Below are positions 2,857 to 41,751 of a stretch of DNA of 64,000 nt, piece by piece. Position 1 is the stretch's first letter. Every line of letters begins with the position of its first letter. Under the pieces are notes generated by a model, which ran no database searches, had not been told where the DNA came from, and saw only the letters and a program-made list of their open reading frames with translations. This stretch comes from Bacteroidota bacterium (GTDB lineage: Bacteria > Bacteroidota > Ignavibacteria > Ignavibacteriales > Melioribacteraceae), in the NCBI GenBank assembly GCA_021812705.1, contig JAKAMT010000001.1, positions 8,016-72,015 on the forward strand, read 5' to 3'. The position numbers were made by a program, and so were the translations under genes.

Positions 2857-4236
2857 TTATAAAATATATTTGCTCAAATCTCTGTTCTTTACAATTTTAT
2901 CTAATTTTCCGTTAACCATCCGTCCGGTGATTTCAATTTTAGAGGAGGGCATTTTATCTGGCACTTCAAAAAGAATATCCTCCAGCAGGGTTGTAAGAAT
3001 AGTGTGGAGCCTTCTCGCGCCGATATTCTCGACCTGATCATTTACAGCCGCGGCAGTACGGGCTATCTCTTTTATTGCCTCGTCGTTAAAATTTATCTCC
3101 ACATTTTCGGTCTGCAGAAGCGCCGCATACTGTTTCAGAAGCGCGTTTTGAGGGAGAGTAAGAATTTTTACAAAATCATCTTCGCTCAAACTTTTCAGTT
3201 CAACTCTTATTGGAAATCTTCCCTGCAGTTCGGGAATCAGATCGCTCGGTTTGGAAACGTGGAACGCTCCTGATGCGATGAATAAAATGTGATCCGTTTT
3301 TACGGGGCCGTATTTTGTGTTTACGGTAGATCCCTCAACTATAGGAAGCAGATCACGCTGAACGCCCTCGCGCGATACATCGGGTCCCTGCTGGCTTTTG
3401 GCGCCGGCAATTTTATCAATCTCGTCGATGAAGACTATGCCGGATTCCTGCACCCGCTTAACGGCCTCTCTTTGAACGGCCTCCATGTCGATCAGCTTCT
3501 CTGCCTCTTCCTGGGCGATCATTTTTTTTGCTTCGCGGATCGGTGTTTTTCTTTTCTTCTTTTTCTTGGGAATCATACTGCTCATCATCTCCTGCAGATT
3601 CATGGTCATATCATCCATTCCCATGGGCCCAAGCACCTGCATTCCGAATGCGGGAGATGTTGTATCGAATTCAATAAGCTTGTCGTCCAGCTCTCCATTG
3701 CGCAGTTTTTCCCTCATCCATTCGCGCGTTTTTTCATTACGCAATTCTTCTGTTTCAATATTCTCATCTTCGATGCCGTTGTTCTTTTTTACCGGAGGAA
3801 TCAACTGGTCAAGAATTCTTTCCTCCGCCATTCTTTCCGCTTTCTCCTGGACCTCGGAAGTTTTTTCCGACCGCACCATGCTCACAGAAAGTTCTGCAAG
3901 ATCTCTGATCATAGATTCAACATCGCGCCCTACATAGCCGACTTCCGTGTATTTGGAAGCTTCTACTTTTATAAAAGGCGCGCCCGAAAGTTTAGCAAGC
4001 CTTCTTGCAATCTCGGTTTTTCCAACTCCGGTGGGGCCGATTAGAATAATATTGTTCGGCATAATCTCTTCGCGGATATTTTCTTCCACCTGCTGGCGTC
4101 TCCATCTGTTTCTTAGCGCGATGGCGACAGCGCGCTTGGCTTCGTCCTGTCCGATAATATATTTGTCCAGTTCATTTACTATTTGAATAGGGGTAAGATC
4201 TTTCATAGAGTTGTTCTTCATTATCCGTTTCCTCAT
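2857..4236 (-). CDS. hslU: ATP-dependent protease ATPase subunit HslU
   Basis: Walker [16 protein letters not shown], Walker [12 protein letters not shown], long I-domain insertion, C-terminal ...LSKYIL. 4-nt overlap with hslV. Confidence 0.97.
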
Positions 4237-4769
4237 TTGGCAATCACTTCGACTGTAATTTTTTCATTTGTATAGATGCAGATATCGGCCGCAACTTTAA
4301 GAGATTCTTCTACAATTTCTTTTGCAGAAAGGGTTCCATATTTTTTCAGCATTTTGGCCGCAGCGAGAGCATACATTCCTCCGCTGCCAATGGCGACAAT
4401 ATTATCCTCCGGCTCAATCACGTCCCCGGTTCCGGAAACAATAAAGGCTTTGTCGGATGAAACAATTGCAAGCATTGCTTCCAAACGGCGTAGATATTTG
4501 TCCGTGCGCCAATCTTTTGCCAGTTCAACCACGGCGCGGGATACATTGCCGCTGTACTGCTCCAATTTTTCTTCGAACCGGGCCAAGAGCGTAAATGCAT
4601 CCGCCGTCGATCCGGCAAATCCGCACAGCACTTTCCCATTTAAAAGTTTTCTGATTTTCATGCTGTTATGTTTCATTACGGTATTGCCGAGCGTTACCTG
4701 TCCGTCGCCACCAAGCGCGGCTTCTCCGTCTTTAATAATTCCTATTATTGTTGTTGATCTGATCTTCAT
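4233..4769 (-). CDS. hslV: ATP-dependent protease peptidase subunit HslV
   Basis: N-terminal catalytic Thr region (STTIIGI), GGDGQVT, 178 aa. Immediately upstream of hslU. Confidence 0.97.
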
Positions 4770-5410
4770 CTGCTGCTCCGTTTAAAAAAATTTAATTTTC
4801 CTATGAAAGGAACCATTCTGGGCACGCTCTTTTGATAATCTGCGTACCGATCCCCGAACATTCTGACAAGTTTTTTTTCTTCGTAAAAAGTGCCGGCATA
4901 AAAATATACTACGGCGCATAAAAAGAATGTAAGGTAGAATAAATTCATAGTCGGTCGTAATCCCAAAAACAAAATTGAAAAAAAGTAGATCGGGTGCCGC
5001 GAGTATTTGAATGCCCCGTCTAATTTTAATTCCTGCTTCTCGTCCAGTTCTTCAATTATATATTCACCGTGCATATATCTCTCTATCTGCGCAATGCCGG
5101 AAAACTCCCTGAAACTGATAGATTGTGATGCCCAGATAAATCCGGCAAGAGATAAAACCTGCAGTGCAAATGTAATCATATCGAAAGGAAAGCGTAAGTC
5201 ATAAACAACCGCATCCGGTTTAGGTGCGAGCGCATAAAAGGCTGAGAAAATTACTATCGACGAGATGTTGTAGAATAAGCGGTAGAATGCAATTTTGTTT
5301 CCGATCCTGGCCGTCAAATTCTCCTTTAATTTAATTGAGGCAAGCCACGTGTGTGAAACCGCAAAAAGAGAAAAAAGGAAAATAATTGTCAGCAGATCAA
5401 CGAGGATCAT
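4766..5410 (-). CDS. Membrane methyltransferase of the ICMT / phospholipid methyltransferase family
   Basis: Multi-TM protein with [14 protein letters not shown] and [21 protein letters not shown], typical of the isoprenylcysteine carboxyl / PEMT-like family. 4-nt overlaps on both sides. Confidence 0.7.
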
Positions 5411-6876
5411 AGTTCCTTTCGGAGACGTGCTACGGGGATTTTAAGCGCTTCTCTATATTTGGCAATTGTGCGGCGCGCCACGTGAATCCCTTTTTCCTGA
5501 AGTATAACTGCAATGCGGTCGTCGCTGTAGGGATTGTCTTTGGGTTCGTGATCGCAGATCTCTTTTATAAGCTCTTTGATGTGTTTGTTCGAAATTTCGT
5601 CGCCGGAATCTGTGGACAATCCTTCGCTGAAGAAATATTTTAATTCGTGTATTCCCTGCGGACTCTGAACAAATTTTCCGTTTACAACACGGCTGATTGT
5701 TGAAATGTCCATTCCTATCTCTTCCGCGATGTCTTTGTAAATCATCGGCTTCAGAAAGCGGGGGCCGCTTTCAAAAAATTCATACTGGCGTTCAAGAATT
5801 GCTCTCATGATTCTCATCAGCGTATTTCTTCTCTGCTGCAAAGAAGCGATGAACCATTTTGCCGATTCAAACTTTTCGCGCAGAAATTTATAAGTTTCTT
5901 TTTCGCGCTCTGATATTTTTCTTTTATGCTTCTTTGTATCTATCATCTCCAGATAAGTTTTGCTTATCGTTACAGACGGCACACTCCTGTCGTTCAGCGT
6001 TACAATATAATTGTCTTCCACTTTCTCTATTATGAAATCGGGAGTAATCTGGTTCAGCTCTTCTGAATCTATATTCCCTTCGCCCGGTTTCGGATTCAGT
6101 TTCTGAATAACGTCGATTGTCGTGCGGAGAGTTTCTTTGGAAAGGTTCATCGTTTTCTGAATCGCGTCGAACCGGCGGTTTGCGAAATCATCAAAATGGT
6201 CTGCCAGAATTTTTTCGGCCAGATATGAATAATAAGGATCGTAAGAGGAATTTCTGATTTGCACGAGCAGGCATTCCTGCAGATTTCTGGTGGCTATTCC
6301 GATCGGTTCCAAAACCTGAATTTTTTTCAGAATTTTTTCCGCCTGTTCAAGAGTTACTTCAACATTCTCGAACATTTTCATTTCGTTAACAATTTTTTCC
6401 AGATCGGTTTTGAAATATCCGTCTTTATCCAGGCTGCCGATTATATTTTCGCCGAGGAGAGTTTCTTCTTCAGTGAGGTCGAGCATGTGAATCTGGTTGA
6501 TCAGATTTTCTCGCAGTGAGCTTCTTTGCGGCGCAACGGGATTAATCTTTTCTTCGTCTCGGCTCCTGTTGATGCGGTCGAATTCATGTTCAGATTCCGT
6601 TTCATTCATGAAATCTTCTAATTCAAATTCATCATCCTTGCTGTCATATTTTTCATCTTCGTCGTCCGAGCTTAAATTATCGTCGCTGTCTTCATCCTTT
6701 TCCTGATCAAGATCGAATTCTTCGTCCAAAGATTCTTCTAATATGGGATTCAGTTCCAGTTCGGTTTTAATGCGCTGTTCAAGGGCGAGCGTATTCAGCT
6801 GCAGCAGTTTCTGATACTGAATCTGCTGAGGAGAAAGCTTTTGTGAAAGCGACAGTTTATGTTGAAGAGATAACAT
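5407..6876 (-). CDS. rpoN: RNA polymerase sigma-54 factor RpoN
   Basis: Gln/Leu-rich region I (LSPQQIQYQKLLQL), acidic region II, and a C-terminal RpoN box ARRTIAKYRE. Confidence 0.95.
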   Translation of the reverse strand: MLSLQHKLSLSQKLSPQQIQYQKLLQLNTLALEQRIKTELELNPILEESLDEEFDLDQEKDEDSDDNLSSDDEDEKYDSKDDEFELEDFMNETESEHEFDRINRSRDEEKINPVAPQRSSLRENLINQIHMLDLTEEETLLGENIIGSLDKDGYFKTDLEKIVNEMKMFENVEVTLEQAEKILKKIQVLEPIGIATRNLQECLLVQIRNSSYDPYYSYLAEKILADHFDDFANRRFDAIQKTMNLSKETLRTTIDVIQKLNPKPGEGNIDSEELNQITPDFIIEKVEDNYIVTLNDRSVPSVTISKTYLEMIDTKKHKRKISEREKETYKFLREKFESAKWFIASLQQRRNTLMRIMRAILERQYEFFESGPRFLKPMIYKDIAEEIGMDISTISRVVNGKFVQSPQGIHELKYFFSEGLSTDSGDEISNKHIKELIKEICDHEPKDNPYSDDRIAVILQEKGIHVARRTIAKYREALKIPVARLRKEL

Positions 6877-6878
6877 GA

Positions 6879-7445
6879 TTATTCTTTGACCGAACTTTTA
6901 ATTTTATTAAGCCATTCTTTTCCGTATGCCCGTTCGAGAGAGTCGCTGCAGAAATCCAAAATTTTAATCTGCGTTTTCTCTCCTTTCTCCAGCGCCGGTT
7001 TGCATTCGTTGTATTTTTCGAACCTCAGCACATCGCCTCCGAAATTCGAAACGCGGATCGGAAAGAGATGACAGGAAACCGGTTTTATAAAATCTATTTT
7101 TTTATCGCGGTACGCTTTCTCAATTCCGCATTTTGCAATATCGCCTTCCCAAATTACAAAAACACAGGCTCTGTTGTTTAAGCTCCTGGTCATCAAGTCG
7201 CCGTGCTTTTCAATCCAGAATCCTTCGCTTTCAATCACTTTAAGGTGTTCTTTAGGCAGATATTTAATTATTTCCGGCAGAATATTATCTATTATATCTA
7301 TTTCAGTCTGAGTGATGGGAGCCCCGTATTCGCTCTCCATCGTACAGCATGCGCCTTTGCATTTTGAAAGATCGCAGGTAAAATTTGTTTCGACAACTTC
7401 TCGGTTTATGAATACATTATCTATTTCAAGAAAATCGGGATTCAT
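6879..7445 (-). CDS. DUF3109-family Cys-rich protein
   Basis: Motif CDLSKCKGACC and further conserved Cys residues. I trimmed the track ORF (6879-7619) to the internal ATG at 7445 (MNPDFLEID...), which gives the usual ~188 aa. The upstream extension is low-complexity and would overlap the divergent SDR promoter region. Confidence 0.7.
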   Translation of the reverse strand: MNPDFLEIDNVFINREVVETNFTCDLSKCKGACCTMESEYGAPITQTEIDIIDNILPEIIKYLPKEHLKVIESEGFWIEKHGDLMTRSLNNRACVFVIWEGDIAKCGIEKAYRDKKIDFIKPVSCHLFPIRVSNFGGDVLRFEKYNECKPALEKGEKTQIKILDFCSDSLERAYGKEWLNKIKSSVKE

Positions 7446-35546: not shown

Positions 35547-36464
35547 TTAATTTTGTTTCTTAACGAGCTCGTCGTAAGTTTTTTCCAGATTCATTTTACG
35601 CGCGCCCTCCCATCTCTCTTTAAGTCCGCCGAACCCGGGTACCTCGCCGGATGCGGCAATTACTTCTTTTGATTTTCCTGTTTTTATGCCGGCTGAAACA
35701 AATTCAATTAAAGCGGTTAAATAATTTTGCATCGCGAGAATATCCGTCATGCTGCCGGTCGTCAGGTCGTCCGAAGCGCCGTGGCCGAAAATGAAAAGAG
35801 TGTCTTTCGAATAGAATTTTGAGATTCTCTCCAGCACGTTTGGCCAGTTTTCAATCGATCCGCCCCCGTTTGAATCTATGAACGGATAAGTCCTGTTGAA
35901 GACAAGATCGCCGACATGCGCTACATTGGTCCTCTGAAAATGAATTACGGAATCGCCTCCCGTATGCGCGGGTCCGAAATATTTTGCGGATACCACCTCT
36001 TTTCCTATCTCCTGTGTCCATTCTTTTTTAAAAGTAAAATTCGGATATGCCTGCGGTTTGGAGGGATCGTTGCCGTAATTTTTTTCCTGGAGCGCTTTGC
36101 AGTTTTCGTGTGCTATTATTCTATCTGCGAAATCTTTTAAATAGATATTTCCCGAAGTATGATCGCCGTGATGATGAGTATTGAAAAGAAGATCTATTCT
36201 TCTTGCCGATTTTTTCCGCAGTTCGGCAAGCATGTTTTTTGCCGAATCCGGAAATTGAGAGTCAACAACCACTACGGCATCATCGGCGGCATACCATCCT
36301 ATGGTGCCCCCTTTTTCCAGGTAGATTCCGCAATCGCCGCGCAATGTTTTAAAACTTCCGGCGGGAGGATTAAAAATCTTTCCAAAATTTATCGAAGCGG
36401 GAATAAAAAATCCGCCCGCTAAAAGAGAAGATGTTCTTAAAAATTCTTTACGTGTTAATTTCAT
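35547..36464 (-). CDS. MBL-fold metallo-hydrolase with Tat-like signal
   Basis: TRKEFLRTSSLLAGG leader. HHHGDH zinc motif with later H and D ligands. Confidence 0.85.
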   Translation of the reverse strand: MKLTRKEFLRTSSLLAGGFFIPASINFGKIFNPPAGSFKTLRGDCGIYLEKGGTIGWYAADDAVVVVDSQFPDSAKNMLAELRKKSARRIDLLFNTHHHGDHTSGNIYLKDFADRIIAHENCKALQEKNYGNDPSKPQAYPNFTFKKEWTQEIGKEVVSAKYFGPAHTGGDSVIHFQRTNVAHVGDLVFNRTYPFIDSNGGGSIENWPNVLERISKFYSKDTLFIFGHGASDDLTTGSMTDILAMQNYLTALIEFVSAGIKTGKSKEVIAASGEVPGFGGLKERWEGARKMNLEKTYDELVKKQN

Positions 36465-36644
36465 TATAATCTCTTTTCTTTTTGATTACCGGCAAATTTA
36501 CCATAAAACTTATTTGTGTTGCAAGAAGTTCTAATTCCAAGAGGAGTTCATTCTGCGCATTCCATCGGGTTTATTTAGAGAGTTATAGAAATATTCATAT
36601 TTAAATATTAATTTATAGCCAGTATTAAACAATATTTCATTTCA

Positions 36645-37694
36645 ATGGCACATCCCAAAACGTTAAAGGCAATTGATTTCTTCTGTTCCATCGGCGGCAT
36701 GACATATGGATTTAGGCAGGCCGGGATTAATGTTATAGCAGGAATAGATATAGATTCATCTTGCAAAGAAACCTACGAATACAATAACCCCGGATCGAAG
36801 TTTATAGAAGCCGATGTGATGGATTTAACTTTTGACGATTTGAAAGAAAAAACCGGAATAAAAGAGAATGACGACAATCTTATTTTTATCGGTTGTAGTC
36901 CGTGTCAGTATTGGAGTATAATAAACACAGTTAAGACAAAATCAGAGAAAACGAAAAACCTTCTAACAGATTTTCAAAGATTTGTGGAACATTTTAAACC
37001 CGGATACGTTGTTGTTGAAAACGTTCCGGGAATTTTGAAGAAAGCCGATGAAAGCGGATTGACTAATTTTATTCGTATGCTTGAAGATGGGGGTAATTAT
37101 AGAGTTGATAAGGGAATTTTAAACGCAAATCATCACGGTGTTCCGCAGAAAAGAAGACGGTTCTCTTTAATCGCATCGCGAGTAAATAAACAAATCTCAC
37201 TTCCTCTTCCCAACAAGGGCCCCGCCCCAACAGTAAAAGATTATATAGGAACGAACAACGGATTTGAAAAAATTCCGAATAATCATAAAGACAAAACCGA
37301 CTTTATTCACACGACGGCAAGGCTTAGTAATAAGAATTTGAAAAGAATTATAAAAACGACCAAGAACGGCGGGAGCAGATGCGATTGGAAAGACAATGAT
37401 GAACTGCAATTAGAGTGTTACAAAAAAAGTCCCGACGGCTTTCGCGATATTTACGGAAGAATGTCTTGGGACAAGCCGGCGCCGACAATAACGACAAAAT
37501 TTCACAGCATTTCGAACGGAAGATTCGGACATCCCAAGGAGAATAGAGCAATTTCATTGAGAGAAGGCGCGACATTACAAACTTTCCCCAAAACATATGT
37601 GTTTAAAGAGAAAAGCATAAGCAAAGTAGCAAAACAAATTGGCAATGCAGTCCCTCCAAATCTTGCCTTTTTAATCGCAAAACAAATAATATAG
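36645..37694 (+). CDS. dcm: DNA (cytosine-5)-methyltransferase
   Basis: Motif I FCSIGG, motif IV GCSPCQYWS, motif VI VVENVPG, motif VIII QKRRRF, motif X GNAVPP, in the canonical order. Confidence 0.93.
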   Translation: MAHPKTLKAIDFFCSIGGMTYGFRQAGINVIAGIDIDSSCKETYEYNNPGSKFIEADVMDLTFDDLKEKTGIKENDDNLIFIGCSPCQYWSIINTVKTKSEKTKNLLTDFQRFVEHFKPGYVVVENVPGILKKADESGLTNFIRMLEDGGNYRVDKGILNANHHGVPQKRRRFSLIASRVNKQISLPLPNKGPAPTVKDYIGTNNGFEKIPNNHKDKTDFIHTTARLSNKNLKRIIKTTKNGGSRCDWKDNDELQLECYKKSPDGFRDIYGRMSWDKPAPTITTKFHSISNGRFGHPKENRAISLREGATLQTFPKTYVFKEKSISKVAKQIGNAVPPNLAFLIAKQII

Positions 37695-37701
37695 CAAATA
37701 T

Positions 37702-39489
37702 ATGACTGGGGATATTGAAAATCTAATTGAAACAATTAAACTAATACAGTCTCGAAACCAATTCAAAAATTATATCGATTATATTCAATTTCCTTTCTAT
37801 AGAAACTTGGAATTGGATCAAAGAATTAATTTTTCCTTTCCATTAACGGTTTTTGTTGGGCCAAATGGTAGCGGTAAAAGTTCAACTCTCCATGCAATAC
37901 AAGGATGCCCTGAAGGTTACACGCCGTACAAGTTCTGGTTTTCGACCGCACTCGACCCTGTAGTAGATGTTCTGGACAGTAGGAAATTGAGGCATTCATT
38001 TTTTTATGGATACAAAGATCCAACTGGAGTTGAATTACAGGTAGCTAAGGCGAGAATTAAAAGGAAGAATAATCCTAATTATTGGGAAACTAGCAGACCA
38101 TTGATCAGTTATGGAATGAATCCTCCACCAGAAGGCCGCGAAAGAAATGATCCGATTACAAAAAATGTTGTGCATATAGACTTTCGCTCTATATTAAGCG
38201 CCTTTGATAAGTATTTCTATTTTGAAACACCGTCACAAAATTTAGCTGCAAAAACAAAACAAGAATATTTGAGAACTAGATCTGAGCGTGTAAAAAAAAT
38301 ATTCAGTGGGGAACACAGAAGATACTTGGATAGAAACTCAAACGAATTTAACAGTCCGGTAGTCGAGCTAATTCCGACAGAATTAAGTGAAATAAGCAGA
38401 ATCCTTGGGAAAGAATATGTTGAGGGAAAAATATTAAGACATAGATTATTTCATAACTGGGGGGATTCCGTCTTGCTGAAAACAAATTTTCATACGTATT
38501 CAGAAGCTTTTGCGGGAAGCGGAGAAATGTCGGTTGTTATGCTTGTGAGATTGGTCCTACAGGCGGAAGAATATTCGCTGATAGTATTAGACGAACCTGA
38601 GGTATCTCTTCACCCGGGAGCTCAAACAAAACTAAAACTCTTTCTCTTAGATCAAATAAAAAAGAAAAAACACCAAATAGTTATTTCTACGCACTCCGCC
38701 TCCTTAATTGAAGGATTACCAAAAGAGGCCATTAAGGTTTTTTTCCAAAAAGAAGATTCTGGTAAATTTATCGTGAAAGAGAATATATCGCCGGAAGAAG
38801 CATTTTATTTTATTGGAAAACCTCTTGATGAAAAAACATTACTTGTTGTTGAAGATAAACTGGCCAAAAAAATAATTGACAAAGTACTTACAAAATTAGG
38901 TCCAGAAGTAAAAAATCGCTTTCAAGTCCAAGCAATACCTGGAGGGGCAGAGACAATTAGTAAACATTATATTCCCATTTATTGTAATACAAATAATGCT
39001 AGATGCTTTTTTTTGTTAGATGGAGATAAAAAGCGAGTTGAACATCTGTTCGAAACAGGGACTCTTCAAGCGCAAGATGAAAATGAAGCATTTCTAAGTC
39101 TAAAAATTAAAGAACAAACCGGCTGTGATATTAAATTTCTGGTGGATGGTAATACCGAGGGAGGAAATGTAGGCCAACGAATAACAATGATGATTGATTT
39201 TTTAAAGTATTATGGAGAACACGTAAGATATTTTCCACAGAAAACCCCCGAAGATATTATTTGGTATGATCAAGTTGTCGAGCAAAAATTAAACAAACAA
39301 GACTATGAACAAAATATTGATCAAATAAATTTATTAAGAACCAGTAAACAAAAAATATTTGAAACAGCAAAAATATTTTTTGGTGTTGATACCCAAATAG
39401 ATGCATTTGAAGATATGTTGATAAATGAGTGGATAAGGAAAGAAGACGAAAATTATGTAATTATTAAAAGCATAATTGAATTATTATAG
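37702..39489 (+). CDS. ABC-type ATPase fused to a TOPRIM-like C-terminal domain (OLD/PARIS-like putative nuclease)
   Basis: Walker A GPNGSGKS (K59), signature-like AGSGE, Walker B LIVLDEPE (D297/E298), H-loop ISTHS. The C-terminal LLVVEDKLA (E384) and FFLLDGD (D440, D442) lie 56 aa apart, which fits the TOPRIM E...DxD spacing. Confidence 0.7.
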   Translation: MTGDIENLIETIKLIQSRNQFKNYIDYIQFPFYRNLELDQRINFSFPLTVFVGPNGSGKSSTLHAIQGCPEGYTPYKFWFSTALDPVVDVLDSRKLRHSFFYGYKDPTGVELQVAKARIKRKNNPNYWETSRPLISYGMNPPPEGRERNDPITKNVVHIDFRSILSAFDKYFYFETPSQNLAAKTKQEYLRTRSERVKKIFSGEHRRYLDRNSNEFNSPVVELIPTELSEISRILGKEYVEGKILRHRLFHNWGDSVLLKTNFHTYSEAFAGSGEMSVVMLVRLVLQAEEYSLIVLDEPEVSLHPGAQTKLKLFLLDQIKKKKHQIVISTHSASLIEGLPKEAIKVFFQKEDSGKFIVKENISPEEAFYFIGKPLDEKTLLVVEDKLAKKIIDKVLTKLGPEVKNRFQVQAIPGGAETISKHYIPIYCNTNNARCFFLLDGDKKRVEHLFETGTLQAQDENEAFLSLKIKEQTGCDIKFLVDGNTEGGNVGQRITMMIDFLKYYGEHVRYFPQKTPEDIIWYDQVVEQKLNKQDYEQNIDQINLLRTSKQKIFETAKIFFGVDTQIDAFEDMLINEWIRKEDENYVIIKSIIELL

Positions 39490-39520
39490 AAATGTGATTA
39501 TAACGAAGGAGAAGTGATAA

Positions 39521-41167
39521 ATGTCCGAGTCGTTAAAAATGAGTTTTGATCCTGCTACGATTGAGCATTTAGGGGTTAAAATGTATTCTAAACTTCCTAA
39601 TGCAATCGCAGAGCTGATTGCGAACGCCTATGATGCAGACTCAACTGTAGTAAAGATAAAATTATATGACAAGGGCGAGAAAAAAATTGTAGTTGAGGAC
39701 AATGGCATAGGAATGACCTTTGATGAAGTTAATGATTACTTTTTACGAATTGGTAGAAATAGGAGAAAAGAGGGCCAAAGCCAAAGTCCAAGTGGTAAAA
39801 GAAAAGTGACTGGGAAAAAGGGATTGGGAAAACTATCTTTTTTTGGTATTGGTAACACAATAGAAGTTGAAACAATAAAAGAAAAGTCCGGTAAGAAAAT
39901 AACATTTAAATTGGATTGGGATGAGTTGTTATCAACAAAGGACAGAGACTATCAACCCAAATTCAGAATTTCAGATTGCCCAAAGAATTTGAAAGGGACT
40001 AATATTATTCTTAAAAATCTTCAAAGAAAAACTGATTTTGATAAGAATGAATTGGCGACAAGTATTTCGAAATTATTCAATCTTTTTGATAATAAATTTG
40101 CTGTTTATTTAAGTCGGAATGACGATTTACCATTACAGATAGATGAGAAATTAAAATATGAAAGCATTGAGATAGATTTTGAGTGGCAATATTCATCATT
40201 GATTGCTGGGTTCGATGTGCTGTATGAAAACAAAGAAAAAATAAATGGTAAGATTATTGCGTCTCCAAAACCGTTGAAGCCGGGATTGAGGGGAATTACA
40301 TTATTTGCAAATGGTCGGTTGGTAAATGCGCCTGAATTTTATGGAATTTCAGAGTCTAGCCATGGGTTTTCTTACTTTACTGGGTGGCTTGAAGTTGATT
40401 TTGTTGATGATTGGGAAGAGGATGTAATTTCAACACATCGTCAATCACTTAATTGGGATATTCCTAAGACTATGTTATTACAAGAATACTTGAAAAAACT
40501 AATGTCACATTTGGAAAGAGTATGGCGCGAGAAGAGAAAGGAAAAAAAGAAAAAAGAATTAAATTCAAAAACTAAGCTAAACGTGACTAATTGGTTAAAT
40601 CTGTTACCCAAAGAAATTAGGGCGAAAATGGAGCCCATTGTTGAGACAATAGACGAAAAAGCAGAATTATCAGACGAAGAAATTGCTAACACTGTTCAAA
40701 ATTTACATGAATTGATTCCTGAATACCCCAATTATCATTGGCGCCACCTCCATCAAGAAATTAGGGAGGCTTCAGAAAATGATTACAAGAACAAAGATTA
40801 TTACAGAGCGTTTTTAGAGGCCGCCAAAAGATATATTAATAAAACTCGAATTAAATCTGGGAATGAACAAATAAGTGAGTCGGGTATGATGGGGGATGTA
40901 TATGGAAGAGGCAAGGCGCTAAGTGTTACAAAAAAATATAAAAAGCCAAGAGGTGGGGATTTTTCGGAATCAACAAAATCTAATATCGAAGAAGGACAAA
41001 AATTTCTTTCAATGGGTATTGTAATGGGTGGTAGAAATCCAGTATCTCATGAAGAAATTCAAGACTTGAGAGAATCTGACTTGTTTTCAGAAAAAGACTG
41101 TTTAGATGGATTAAGCCTACTTTCACATTTAATGAAAAGATTAGAAAATTCAGAAAATAATGGCTGA
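39521..41167 (+). CDS. GHKL-superfamily (MORC-like HATPase) ATPase with C-terminal Hypoth_Ymh/TIGR02391-like domain
   Basis: N-box ELIANAYDAD (E31, N35, D38), G1 box VEDNGIGM (D60), G2 box GKKGLGKLSFFGIG. The C-terminal YYRAFLEAAKRYINK...GGRNPVSHEE matches my recollection of PF09509. RBS AAGGAG lies upstream. Confidence 0.7.
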   Translation: MSESLKMSFDPATIEHLGVKMYSKLPNAIAELIANAYDADSTVVKIKLYDKGEKKIVVEDNGIGMTFDEVNDYFLRIGRNRRKEGQSQSPSGKRKVTGKKGLGKLSFFGIGNTIEVETIKEKSGKKITFKLDWDELLSTKDRDYQPKFRISDCPKNLKGTNIILKNLQRKTDFDKNELATSISKLFNLFDNKFAVYLSRNDDLPLQIDEKLKYESIEIDFEWQYSSLIAGFDVLYENKEKINGKIIASPKPLKPGLRGITLFANGRLVNAPEFYGISESSHGFSYFTGWLEVDFVDDWEEDVISTHRQSLNWDIPKTMLLQEYLKKLMSHLERVWREKRKEKKKKELNSKTKLNVTNWLNLLPKEIRAKMEPIVETIDEKAELSDEEIANTVQNLHELIPEYPNYHWRHLHQEIREASENDYKNKDYYRAFLEAAKRYINKTRIKSGNEQISESGMMGDVYGRGKALSVTKKYKKPRGGDFSESTKSNIEEGQKFLSMGIVMGGRNPVSHEEIQDLRESDLFSEKDCLDGLSLLSHLMKRLENSENNG

Positions 41168-41576
41168 TATATATACAAAACAAAAGCGCTCTCTGATCAT
41201 GTCAAAAATTTCCGGTAAAAATACAAAACCGGAAATTACCATAAGAAAAATTGCCCATTCACTTGGCTACCGTTTCAGACTTCACAAAAAAGATTTACCA
41301 GGCAACCCGGATATGGTGTTCCCCAAATACAAAAAAATAATATTTGTTAACGGCTGCTTTTGGCACGGGCACAAAGACTGTACACGCTCAAAACTTCCAA
41401 CGACAAATAAAAAATTTTGGAAAGAAAAAATAGAATTAAATAAGAAAAGGGATGGAAAAAATTATAATCAACTGAAAAAAATGGACTGGAAATATTTGGT
41501 GATCTGGCAATGCCAGATAAGAGCTAAGTCGTTATCGAAACTCGAGAATAAAATTATTAAGTTTTTAGTCAACTAA
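41160..41576 (+). CDS. vsr: Very-short-patch repair endonuclease Vsr
   Basis: RSLIMSKI.GKNTKPE, LPGNPDMVF, and FVNGCFWHGH. 138 aa. 8-nt overlap with the preceding ORF. Confidence 0.92.
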   Translation: MADIYTKQKRSLIMSKISGKNTKPEITIRKIAHSLGYRFRLHKKDLPGNPDMVFPKYKKIIFVNGCFWHGHKDCTRSKLPTTNKKFWKEKIELNKKRDGKNYNQLKKMDWKYLVIWQCQIRAKSLSKLENKIIKFLVN

Positions 41577-41751
41577 TAACCTGCAACAATCTTTCCAAAG
41601 ATTACAGTCGTATTTTATCAAAGCCTCCATATTTATTAAGTTCATTATGTAAAAAGTATCTTTGCGGACGAGTTTGTTCTTTCGAGCTATTAATATTACG
41701 TTATTGATATATTAATTTATTTTTTTTATTAAAATAAATGGTAAATGAAAA

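Follow-up and report, generated by a model that had tools for sequence, protein, structure and literature searches.

The gene at positions 39521–41167 of the forward strand of a 64,000-nucleotide stretch of a Bacteroidota bacterium genome (assembly GCA_021812705.1, contig JAKAMT010000001.1, positions 8,016–72,015; hereafter the window) encodes a protein of 548 residues, here called GHKL-Ymh, in which a GHKL (Bergerat-fold) ATPase is fused to a C-terminal Hypoth_Ymh domain (PF09509/TIGR02391). We propose, with a probability of about one half, that GHKL-Ymh is the ATP-gated, methylation-controlled RNase arm of a cassette that resembles a restriction-modification (R-M) system, with a role in defence or addiction, and that it would cut RNA rather than DNA. 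The proposal draws on the domain composition of the protein, the conservation of its residues, its linkage to a gene for a C5 cytosine DNA methyltransferase (Dcm), its relationship by effector exchange to the BbrUII/HgiDII family, and its mobility. The fusion and its R-M context have already been described in silico, in 2008 and in 2013. New here are a measure of how large and uniform the family is, the quantified linkage to Dcm, the boundary of the swap with respect to HgiDII/BbrUII and the OLD-like identity of a neighbouring ATPase, together with an apparent connection to CCGG sites that includes coexistence with HpaII-type endonucleases.

Domain organization of GHKL-Ymh

The open reading frame (ORF) runs from an ATG start to a stop codon. 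A preliminary description, made from the nucleotide sequence without database searches, had proposed the fusion of a GHKL ATPase to a Hypoth_Ymh/TIGR02391 module, and both domain calls hold in Pfam and NCBIfam at scores above the family cut-offs. HATPase_c_3 covers residues 25–145 (39593–39955; E=1.8e-22, 80 bits against a cut-off of 25). Hypoth_Ymh covers residues 408–541 (E=4.1e-15, 56.1 bits against a cut-off of 25) and is matched over its entire profile (1–119 of 119), as is TIGR02391 (1–125 of 125; 50.1 bits against a cut-off of 39.45). Between the two lie a β-rich, transducer-like middle domain (residues 146–314; 39956–40462) and a helical connector that includes a lysine-rich helix (residues 315–398; 40463–40714). 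The C-terminal Ymh domain, a predicted HEPN RNase effector, is delimited here as residues 399–548 (40715–41164).

The sequence motifs quoted in the preliminary description are all present at the expected places: ELIANAYDAD at residues 31–40, DNGIGM at 60–65, GKKGLGKLSFFGIG at 98–111, REKRKEKKKKELNSK at 336–350, GGRNPVSHEE at 503–512 and LSLLSHLMKRLE at 531–542. The ATP-binding site is intact, with motif I (E31 and N35), motif II (D60, G62 and G64), motif III (G98, G101 and G103) and motif IV (G159 and T160), the last lying just past the end of the Pfam-matched GHKL range. Residue conservation was assessed across 80 aligned sequences drawn from a wide range of phyla. E31, N35, D38, D60, G62, G64, G98, G101, G103 and G159 are conserved in all 80 sequences and T160 in 79. 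In the middle domain, R266, D296, T305 and R307 are invariant and Q308 is nearly so, a set of residues that we take to recall the QTK loop of GyrB.

An AlphaFold2 model of the full-length protein, built on 33 homologues, has a mean predicted local distance difference test (pLDDT) score of 82.5. Foldseek aligns 360–440 columns of the model to the N-terminal and middle domains of Hsp90/TRAP1/GRP94 and to the ATPase module of SMCHD1 (E-values of 5e-14 to 1e-11). Residues 1 to ~314 thus correspond to a Bergerat-fold ATPase followed by a transducer-like, β-rich middle domain, a region that the preliminary description had proposed to look for. Beyond it, the model contains helices at residues 315–351, 355–361, 364–380 and 385–398. 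The lysine-rich stretch noted earlier as a linker is indeed present, but it is modelled within the long helix 315–351, which is conserved in relatives, and not as a flexible segment. A Pfam scan and Foldseek revealed no nuclease family and no DNA-nuclease fold in the GHKL and middle region. The possibility of a hidden nuclease in residues 151–384 was also considered and rejected: this segment matches no Pfam family, and its structure aligns with the M-domain of Hsp90 or the transducer regions of SMCHD1.

By both sequence and fold, the nearest solved relatives are HtpG/Hsp90, MutL and SMCHD1. MORC proteins are absent from the top 50 Foldseek entries, and searches of NCBIfam and of PDB sequences gave no MORC match. 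The earlier term "MORC-like" applies only loosely, in the sense of a paraMORC, the group to which Ymh fusions are assigned in the literature (PMC3710099), and we do not class GHKL-Ymh as a MORC proper; paraMORCs lack the unifying motif that is specific to MORCs (PMC2292703).

The C-terminal domain and the exchange of effectors

The Ymh domain is not the orphan that the preliminary description had supposed. Anantharaman, Makarova, Burroughs, Koonin and Aravind classified it in 2013 as a HEPN family that retains the Rx4-6H motif, reported its "fusions to pMORC" in R-M operons, and proposed an analogy to the anticodon nucleases PrrC and RloC (PMC3710099). Five years before, Orlowski and Bujnicki had noted an N-terminal GHKL and a C-terminal Hypoth_Ymh domain in the putative restriction enzyme R.NmeAIP (PMC2441816). 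Catalytic HEPN domains are described as having the Rx4-6H motif, a polar residue (N, D or H) directly after the arginine, and an upstream acidic residue, typically within Ex3[KR] (PMC3710099). The corresponding segment of GHKL-Ymh is R505-N-P-V-S-H510 (41033–41050), a putative catalytic motif of the Rx4H form. R505 and H510 are conserved in 80 of 80 sequences and are also invariant across a wider, more divergent set of Ymh proteins. Position 506 is asparagine in 74 sequences and histidine in six, and in the upstream E433-x3-R437 segment the glutamate is conserved in 79 sequences and an arginine or lysine at position 437 in 74. In its sequence, Ymh agrees with the published definition of a catalytic HEPN domain, and RNase activity is predicted. 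The invariance of the GHKL motif residues together with R505 and H510 across the 80 sequences suggests that both predicted activities are under selection.

The Ymh module modelled alone is all helical (pLDDT 87.7). Weak secondary Pfam matches of 18 Ymh-domain sequences include three families of the HEPN clan, HEPN_Swt1 (4e-4), HEPN_Apea (0.013) and HEPN_RiboL-PSP (0.034), which may be taken as a modest, independent signal for a HEPN relationship. The HHpred probabilities that linked new families in general to HEPN in the 2013 study were 75–98% (PMC3710099). An exhaustive HMMER search with the Ymh domain yielded 216 representatives at 50% identity among 1.84 billion proteins. Most of these have the same architecture of ~550 residues; the others are either proteins of ~245 residues with an unfamiliar N-terminal region or tandem Ymh-Ymh proteins. 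HEPN nucleases usually need a paired active site formed by a composite dimer, and the tandem proteins are consistent with such an arrangement. In two of them (P0229 and P0240), the linkers are of low complexity and rich in Gly, Arg and Pro, and one of the two also has a zinc ribbon at its N-terminus and a KTSC domain at its C-terminus.

In the preliminary description, the Ymh domain was suggested to be the sensor of nucleic acid or of its modification. In such a scheme, a non-catalytic Ymh would recognize nucleic acid or 5-methylcytosine and steer the GHKL clamp, the output being MORC-like compaction or silencing of DNA. Some HEPN domains, such as MtlR and the nucleotidyltransferase-associated versions, are indeed non-catalytic binders (PMC3710099), and no sensor element was identified elsewhere in GHKL-Ymh. 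The non-catalytic HEPN families, however, are reported to lack the Rx4-6H motif (PMC3710099), whereas its arginine and histidine are retained throughout the 80 sequences and in divergent Ymh proteins. Moreover, the C-terminus is the exchangeable part of these proteins, since relatives hold nucleases or TIR domains there (PMC2292703, PMC12137116) and the chassis formed by the first 395 residues recurs in BbrUII/HgiDII-family proteins, which end in a different C-terminal domain. The polarity proposed earlier is thus the less likely one, and we regard a sensor role for Ymh as very improbable.

The extent of the shared chassis is evident from a comparison with the BbrUII/HgiDII family (NCBIfam NF050001). 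Residues 6–386 of GHKL-Ymh match positions 2–407 of the 659-position profile with 229.7 bits. As this score is far below the cut-off of 550 and the C-terminal part of the profile is unmatched, GHKL-Ymh is not a member of the family. A tblastn search of plasmids and phages identified many proteins that are similar only in the N-terminal ~335–395 residues; five of these were inspected, and each matches the BbrUII/HgiDII model over its full length and lies beside a Dcm gene. An HgiDII-family protein of Acinetobacter is collinear with residues 4–395 at 39% identity (E=5e-76) and has no similarity beyond residue 395. By these alignments, GHKL-Ymh is the sister of the BbrUII/HgiDII family, with the C-terminal domain of ~250 residues replaced by a Ymh/HEPN domain of ~150 residues. 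The end of collinearity at residue 395 points to an origin by a swap of the C-terminal effector.

Other paraMORC variants have a PD-(D/E)xK, TIR or unknown C-terminus (PMC2292703). In one of them, VcSduA/paraMORC3 of V. cholerae, GHKL is combined with a DUF4263 nuclease; the protein is anti-phage, and protection is abolished both by E27A, designed to disrupt ATP hydrolysis, and by K557A, a mutation of the nuclease site (PMC12137116). In two Chryseobacterium loci (L027, 2347–5337, and L031, 2354–5344), a 996-residue protein with HATPase_c_3, HEF_HK and HATPase_c domains directly follows Dcm, and GHKL-Ymh lies ~1.6 kb further downstream, followed by the very-short-patch repair endonuclease Vsr. 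Such HATPase_c_3 and HEF_HK proteins are "two-component-like" paraMORC relatives (PMC8011034), and in these loci one methyltransferase is apparently common to two different GHKL-type modules. Together, the BbrUII/HgiDII swap, the paraMORC variants and the HEF_HK variant form a pattern of a constant, ATP-driven switch with exchangeable effectors.

Pairs of Dcm and a GHKL protein are also found in two P2-like phages. In Escherichia phage PhiR44_1 (L086, 3492–6540), the GHKL protein is annotated "ParaMORC3" and matches the BbrUII/HgiDII model at profile positions 1–658 with 751 bits, as a bona fide member of the family; in Yersinia phage P37 (L090, 1968–5013), the match is 329 bits, under the cut-off of 550. 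The pair adjoins the replication gene gpA in both phages. In PhiR44_1 it occupies the interval bounded by gpA and the portal gene gpQ, which is a known anti-phage hotspot of P2.

HgiDII and BbrUII are restriction enzymes said to cut DNA at GTCGAC. One could suppose that GHKL-Ymh is a Type II-like DNA restriction endonuclease, cutting unmethylated CCGG either through Ymh or through an unrecognised site in the N-terminal 395 residues. In addition to the match of residues 6–386 to the BbrUII/HgiDII model, the REase_II models of PADLOC match the N-terminus of the protein, its gene stands beside Dcm and often Vsr in the position of a restriction gene, and the Neisseria relative carries the REBASE label R.NmeAIP and is treated as a putative restriction enzyme in literature derived from REBASE (PMC2441816). 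The whole C-terminal domain of HgiDII/BbrUII, about 250 residues, is nevertheless different, and the part that is shared folds as GHKL and transducer, with neither a nuclease fold nor a nuclease Pfam match. In addition, HEPN chemistry uses the 2'-OH of RNA, with a 2',3'-cyclic phosphate as product (PMC3710099), and DNA cannot supply this group. We consider cleavage of DNA by GHKL-Ymh unlikely.

Distribution, cassette and partner methyltransferase

At least 2,609 homologous protein clusters were found at E≤1e-5. The best 120 clusters are all full length with both domains, at 55–82% identity, and where they are named, the name is only "TIGR02391 family protein". In a collection with one genome per species, 293 species have a GHKL-Ymh relative; they include Bacteroidota, Ignavibacteria, several proteobacterial classes, Firmicutes, Spirochaetes, Planctomycetes and two archaea.

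The gene neighbourhood was analysed in 80 fetched loci, 74 of which have enough upstream sequence. A Dcm homologue lies directly upstream on the same strand in 65 of the 74 loci and within 2.5 kb in 75 of the 80. In most loci no recognised endonuclease stands beside GHKL-Ymh, so that, with Dcm as its neighbour, GHKL-Ymh occupies the position of the restriction gene. The window itself agrees with the preliminary description, which had placed the gene in a methyltransferase operon: Dcm (36645–37694, forward strand; PF00145, 2.2e-61; TIGR00675, 1.5e-45) and an ATPase lie upstream, and Vsr (41160–41576, forward strand; PF03852, 4.4e-31; TIGR00632, 1.3e-39) lies downstream. The adjacent methyltransferase that is expected of a Type II R-M system is therefore present.

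Vsr occurs somewhere in the locus in 50 of the 80 loci, and in the window its start and the stop codon of GHKL-Ymh overlap by 8 nucleotides. This proximity could be read as a sign that GHKL-Ymh is a MutL-like accessory of very-short-patch repair without an immune role, recruiting or stimulating Vsr at T:G mismatches that derive from Dcm methylation. MutL is among the sequence matches, and the 2008 paper on paraMORCs cited functional interactions of MutL and Vsr in E. coli and stressed the link between GHKL and Vsr (PMC2292703). Vsr is missing, however, from 30 of the 80 loci, whereas Dcm is almost always there, and it commonly accompanies R-M systems of the Dcm type in any case (PMC8011034). 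A repair function would also leave the strictly conserved HEPN dyad without a role, and a distribution as patchy and mobile as this one is characteristic of defence genes. This is the least probable of the explanations considered here.

The specificity of the partner Dcm can be approached through Neisseria. The window Dcm shares 56–60% identity with the Dcm encoded in the Neisseria version of the cassette, and the N. gonorrhoeae GHKL-Ymh is 43.6% identical to that of the window over 99% of its length, with the order Dcm-GHKL-Ymh-Vsr. M.NmeAI, the methyltransferase of the Neisseria prototype, was assigned the motif C5mCGG in a study by single-molecule real-time sequencing (PMC4676702). Among the loci in which no close Dcm lies immediately upstream, a gene of the RE_HpaII family intervenes in L025 and L065 (1e-110 and 2e-82). 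The order in L025 (4642–8608) is M.HpaII-like Dcm, HpaII restriction endonuclease and GHKL-Ymh; the L065 contig starts inside the HpaII gene, which directly precedes GHKL-Ymh (35–2286). In L030 and L050, a small protein intervenes behind Dcm and has a weak, BsaWI-like similarity (E-values of 6e-4 and 4e-4, under the Pfam cut-off). HpaII cuts CCGG and BsaWI cuts WCCGGW. Three of the classes of partner Dcm have a homologous target-recognition region in common. From the M.NmeAI motif and the HpaII- or BsaWI-like genes of these four loci, we infer that the partner Dcm is probably CCGG-specific and that the GHKL-Ymh family is probably tied to 5-methylcytosine in CCGG. A single link to CCGG would account for the uniform conservation of GHKL-Ymh, which has no hypervariable specificity region.

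On the N. gonorrhoeae chromosome (L085, about 2924–6063), Dcm is frameshifted and GHKL-Ymh has in-frame stops, with Vsr intact. Decay of these two genes fits the frequent fate of toxic R-M pairs. The 2.17-Mb record is listed in PLSDB as a plasmid and is evidently a mislabelled chromosome.

The presence of a classical HpaII endonuclease in L025, and apparently in L065, would make GHKL-Ymh redundant as a second CCGG-cutting DNase, a further point against DNA cleavage. At the same time, it lends weight to the proposal of 2013 (PMC3710099), by which GHKL-Ymh would be a guard like PrrC or RloC. In that view, contact with the partner methyltransferase or R-M proteins would keep the HEPN RNase, which may be an anticodon nuclease, silent until an anti-restriction factor of a phage disables these partners and so sets it free; DNA methylation itself would not be read by GHKL-Ymh. 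In L025, the HpaII endonuclease is accompanied by Dcm. An NTPase followed by a C-terminal HEPN domain parallels the layout of PrrC and RloC, and the gene overlaps suggest co-translation and possibly complex formation. Most loci, on the other hand, hold only Dcm and have no recognised endonuclease to guard, while the partner of PrrC is a complete Type I system. Furthermore, the GHKL chassis is common to the restriction enzymes of the HgiDII/BbrUII family, which presumably engage DNA. A guard of this kind seems to us an unlikely alternative to a methylation-controlled RNase. The idea that Dcm is a Dnmt2-like RNA methyltransferase that shields tRNA from the HEPN domain was set aside, as Vsr, which repairs T:G mismatches in DNA, co-occurs and methylation by M.NmeAI was detected on DNA.

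The gene order of the cassette is Dcm, ATPase, GHKL-Ymh and Vsr, all on the forward strand. The second gene (37702–39489) encodes a protein of 595 residues with an ABC-type AAA_15/AAA_21 ATPase domain in Pfam and a TOPRIM-like C-terminal half. It matches the PADLOC models HEC-04 (1.2e-35), ATPase-Toprim_I-B (3e-20), GajA (2e-15) and Old (4.9e-14), and its top PDB match is the OLD-family endonuclease 6p74 (7.5e-6). The ABC-type ATPase part expected of the OLD family is present. The Pfam TOPRIM family gave no match in the C-terminal 255 residues, and V383-E384-D385 and D440-G441-D442 are unchanged across nine orthologues. By these similarities, the protein is a plausible OLD-family-like ATPase-TOPRIM candidate for a DNA nuclease. 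A homologue is found in only 9 of the 80 related loci (~11%), where it either separates Dcm from GHKL-Ymh or follows GHKL-Ymh. This low frequency and variable position rule it out as a core component and mark it as accessory; the core consists of Dcm and GHKL-Ymh, often with Vsr.

The four genes lie in a low-GC island (36500–41700) with a GC content of 0.33–0.37, compared to 0.42–0.45 in the flanks. Ordinary chromosomal genes border the island: those for an RluA-type pseudouridine synthase and for a metallo-hydrolase at one end, and those for YciI and for an arylamine N-acetyltransferase at the other. The same cassette also occurs on other contigs, where its neighbours are identical. The low GC content and the patchy spread over the 293 species, including archaea, are consistent with a mobile defence gene. 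Just outside the island, a metallo-β-lactamase-fold protein is encoded on the reverse strand (35547–36464), which has a weak likeness to subclass B1 β-lactamase models (69.9 bits, where the cut-off is 200) and to SoxH-like hydrolases. A label of carbapenemase was rejected for this protein, the score being well under any resistance-gene threshold.

Several individual loci have features of their own. On plasmid p1 of Burkholderia sp. RPE67 (L091, 5096–6778), a SIR2_2-domain protein is encoded just downstream of Dcm and GHKL-Ymh, which suggests a defence island; each of these genes carries the erroneous annotation "putative membrane protein". In the Sphingobacterium pedocola locus L054, a 405-residue protein with an HNH_2 endonuclease domain (5782–6999) precedes GHKL-Ymh, which is followed by a 483-residue protein without a Pfam match. 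In a metagenome-assembled genome of Campylobacteraceae (L006, 4950–6587), GHKL-Ymh is split into two ORFs, and in two further metagenome-assembled genomes (L034 and L039) it apparently ends after residue ~519. These breaks could be inactivating mutations or assembly errors.

Proposed mechanism and comparison with known systems

In the mechanism that we propose for GHKL-Ymh, residues 1–395 (GHKL, middle domain and connector) would form an ATP-driven, dimerising switch that engages DNA, and the partner Dcm, probably CCGG-specific, would label the host DNA as self. DNA without the mark, or the loss or blockage of the methyltransferase, would be the trigger. ATP-dependent closure of the dimer would then license its pair of C-terminal Ymh/HEPN domains, and the R505-x4-H510 site would cleave RNA independently of metal and so stop translation. 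The outcome would be growth arrest or abortive infection, or the death of cells that have lost the cassette. Vsr would mend T:G mismatches resulting from deamination of 5-methylcytosine, and the OLD-like ATPase/TOPRIM protein, where present, may supply a DNA-degrading arm. The sequence analysis itself shows the domain content, the conserved residues, the gene linkage, the effector swap and the mobility; that the protein senses DNA and its methylation, targets CCGG, cuts RNA and affects the cell in this way is predicted. The most specific version, in which the GHKL clamp itself reads the CCGG 5-methylcytosine mark and fires the HEPN RNase on unmarked DNA, in an R-M-like system with an RNA-cutting restriction arm, is offered tentatively.

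Several results weigh against this mechanism. A Foldseek search of the PDB and BFVD with the Ymh model gave no significant match; the best HEPN entries, 2hsb and AbiV (9bj7), have E-values of 5.9–9 and template-modelling scores of about 0.3. A profile search of PDB sequences with Ymh also returned nothing, so that neither sequence nor profile comparison leads to a solved structure. A literature search gave no biochemical or genetic study of any Ymh protein or GHKL-Ymh fusion. The names of the sister family, HgiDII and BbrUII, are those of restriction enzymes (NF050001; PMC2441816), leaving room for DNA cleavage. In the 15.6-kb L054 locus no Dcm was detected, an exception to the usual linkage. 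The observed/expected ratio of CCGG, which is 0.86 for the window without the island and 0.84 for 425 kb of sequence flanking related loci, is ordinary among 4-mer palindromes and is uninformative as to avoidance or enrichment. A DNA-recognition element was not identified in GHKL-Ymh, and none of its segments stands out as co-varying with the identity of the partner Dcm (correlations of 0.32–0.58); in several loci, GHKL-Ymh proteins that are 53–57% identical lie next to Dcm proteins that are 32–35% identical. This result fits a single conserved specificity or a protein that does not read sequence, and it does not decide the matter.

If the proposed mechanism is correct, thousands of genes that go by the name "TIGR02391 family protein" or are listed among the Type II restriction enzymes would encode methylation-gated RNases. 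Epigenetic discrimination of self and non-self on DNA would be coupled to an abortive, translation-blocking output, and the boundary between restriction-modification and abortive infection would be blurred. The HgiDII-type GHKL chassis would then serve as a general switch that is sensitive to methylation and that has received DNase, TIR, kinase-like or RNase effectors by exchange. Dcm and GHKL-Ymh would also provide a tractable, two-gene system for studying how ATPases of the GHKL/MORC type read the modification state of DNA, a question that also arises for eukaryotic MORCs and SMCHD1. Annotation of the family in defence-system and REBASE-style resources should not presume DNA cleavage. With a well-conserved architecture that is already known computationally, GHKL-Ymh is of value as a candidate for experiments rather than as a discovery.

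The closest known systems are the paraMORC-Ymh fusions such as R.NmeAIP of Neisseria meningitidis, which have the same GHKL and PF09509 architecture in the same context of a cytosine methyltransferase and Vsr. Nothing essential differs from these; the window cassette adds the OLD-like gene between Dcm and GHKL-Ymh. BbrUII/HgiDII proteins (NF050001) are collinear over residues 4–395, including the lysine-rich helical connector, and are likewise encoded directly after Dcm, but they carry their own C-terminal domain of ~250 residues (profile positions 408–659, no Pfam family) instead of Ymh/HEPN.

VcSduA, a type I-D Shedu protein of Vibrio cholerae, similarly combines in one polypeptide a GHKL ATPase at the N-terminus, a middle domain that resembles a clamp and a nuclease effector at the C-terminus (PMC12137116). 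Its effector is a DUF4263 DNase of the PD-(D/E)xK type and not a HEPN domain, and it functions by itself, with no methyltransferase as obligate partner. PrrC and RloC also consist of an NTPase module and a C-terminal HEPN RNase with Rx4-6H, and PrrC resides within an R-M locus. In contrast to GHKL-Ymh, their NTPase is ABC/Rad50-like, and the partner of PrrC is a complete Type I R-M system instead of what is usually a lone, Type II-style Dcm.

MutL, Hsp90/HtpG and SMCHD1 share with GHKL-Ymh the GHKL and transducer fold and the ATP-binding motifs, and MutL further resembles it in layout, with the ATPase at the N-terminus and a nuclease or dimerisation region at the C-terminus. GHKL-Ymh contains neither the C-terminal endonuclease domain of MutL nor the C-terminal domain of Hsp90, and its sequence similarity to these proteins is limited to the Bergerat fold.

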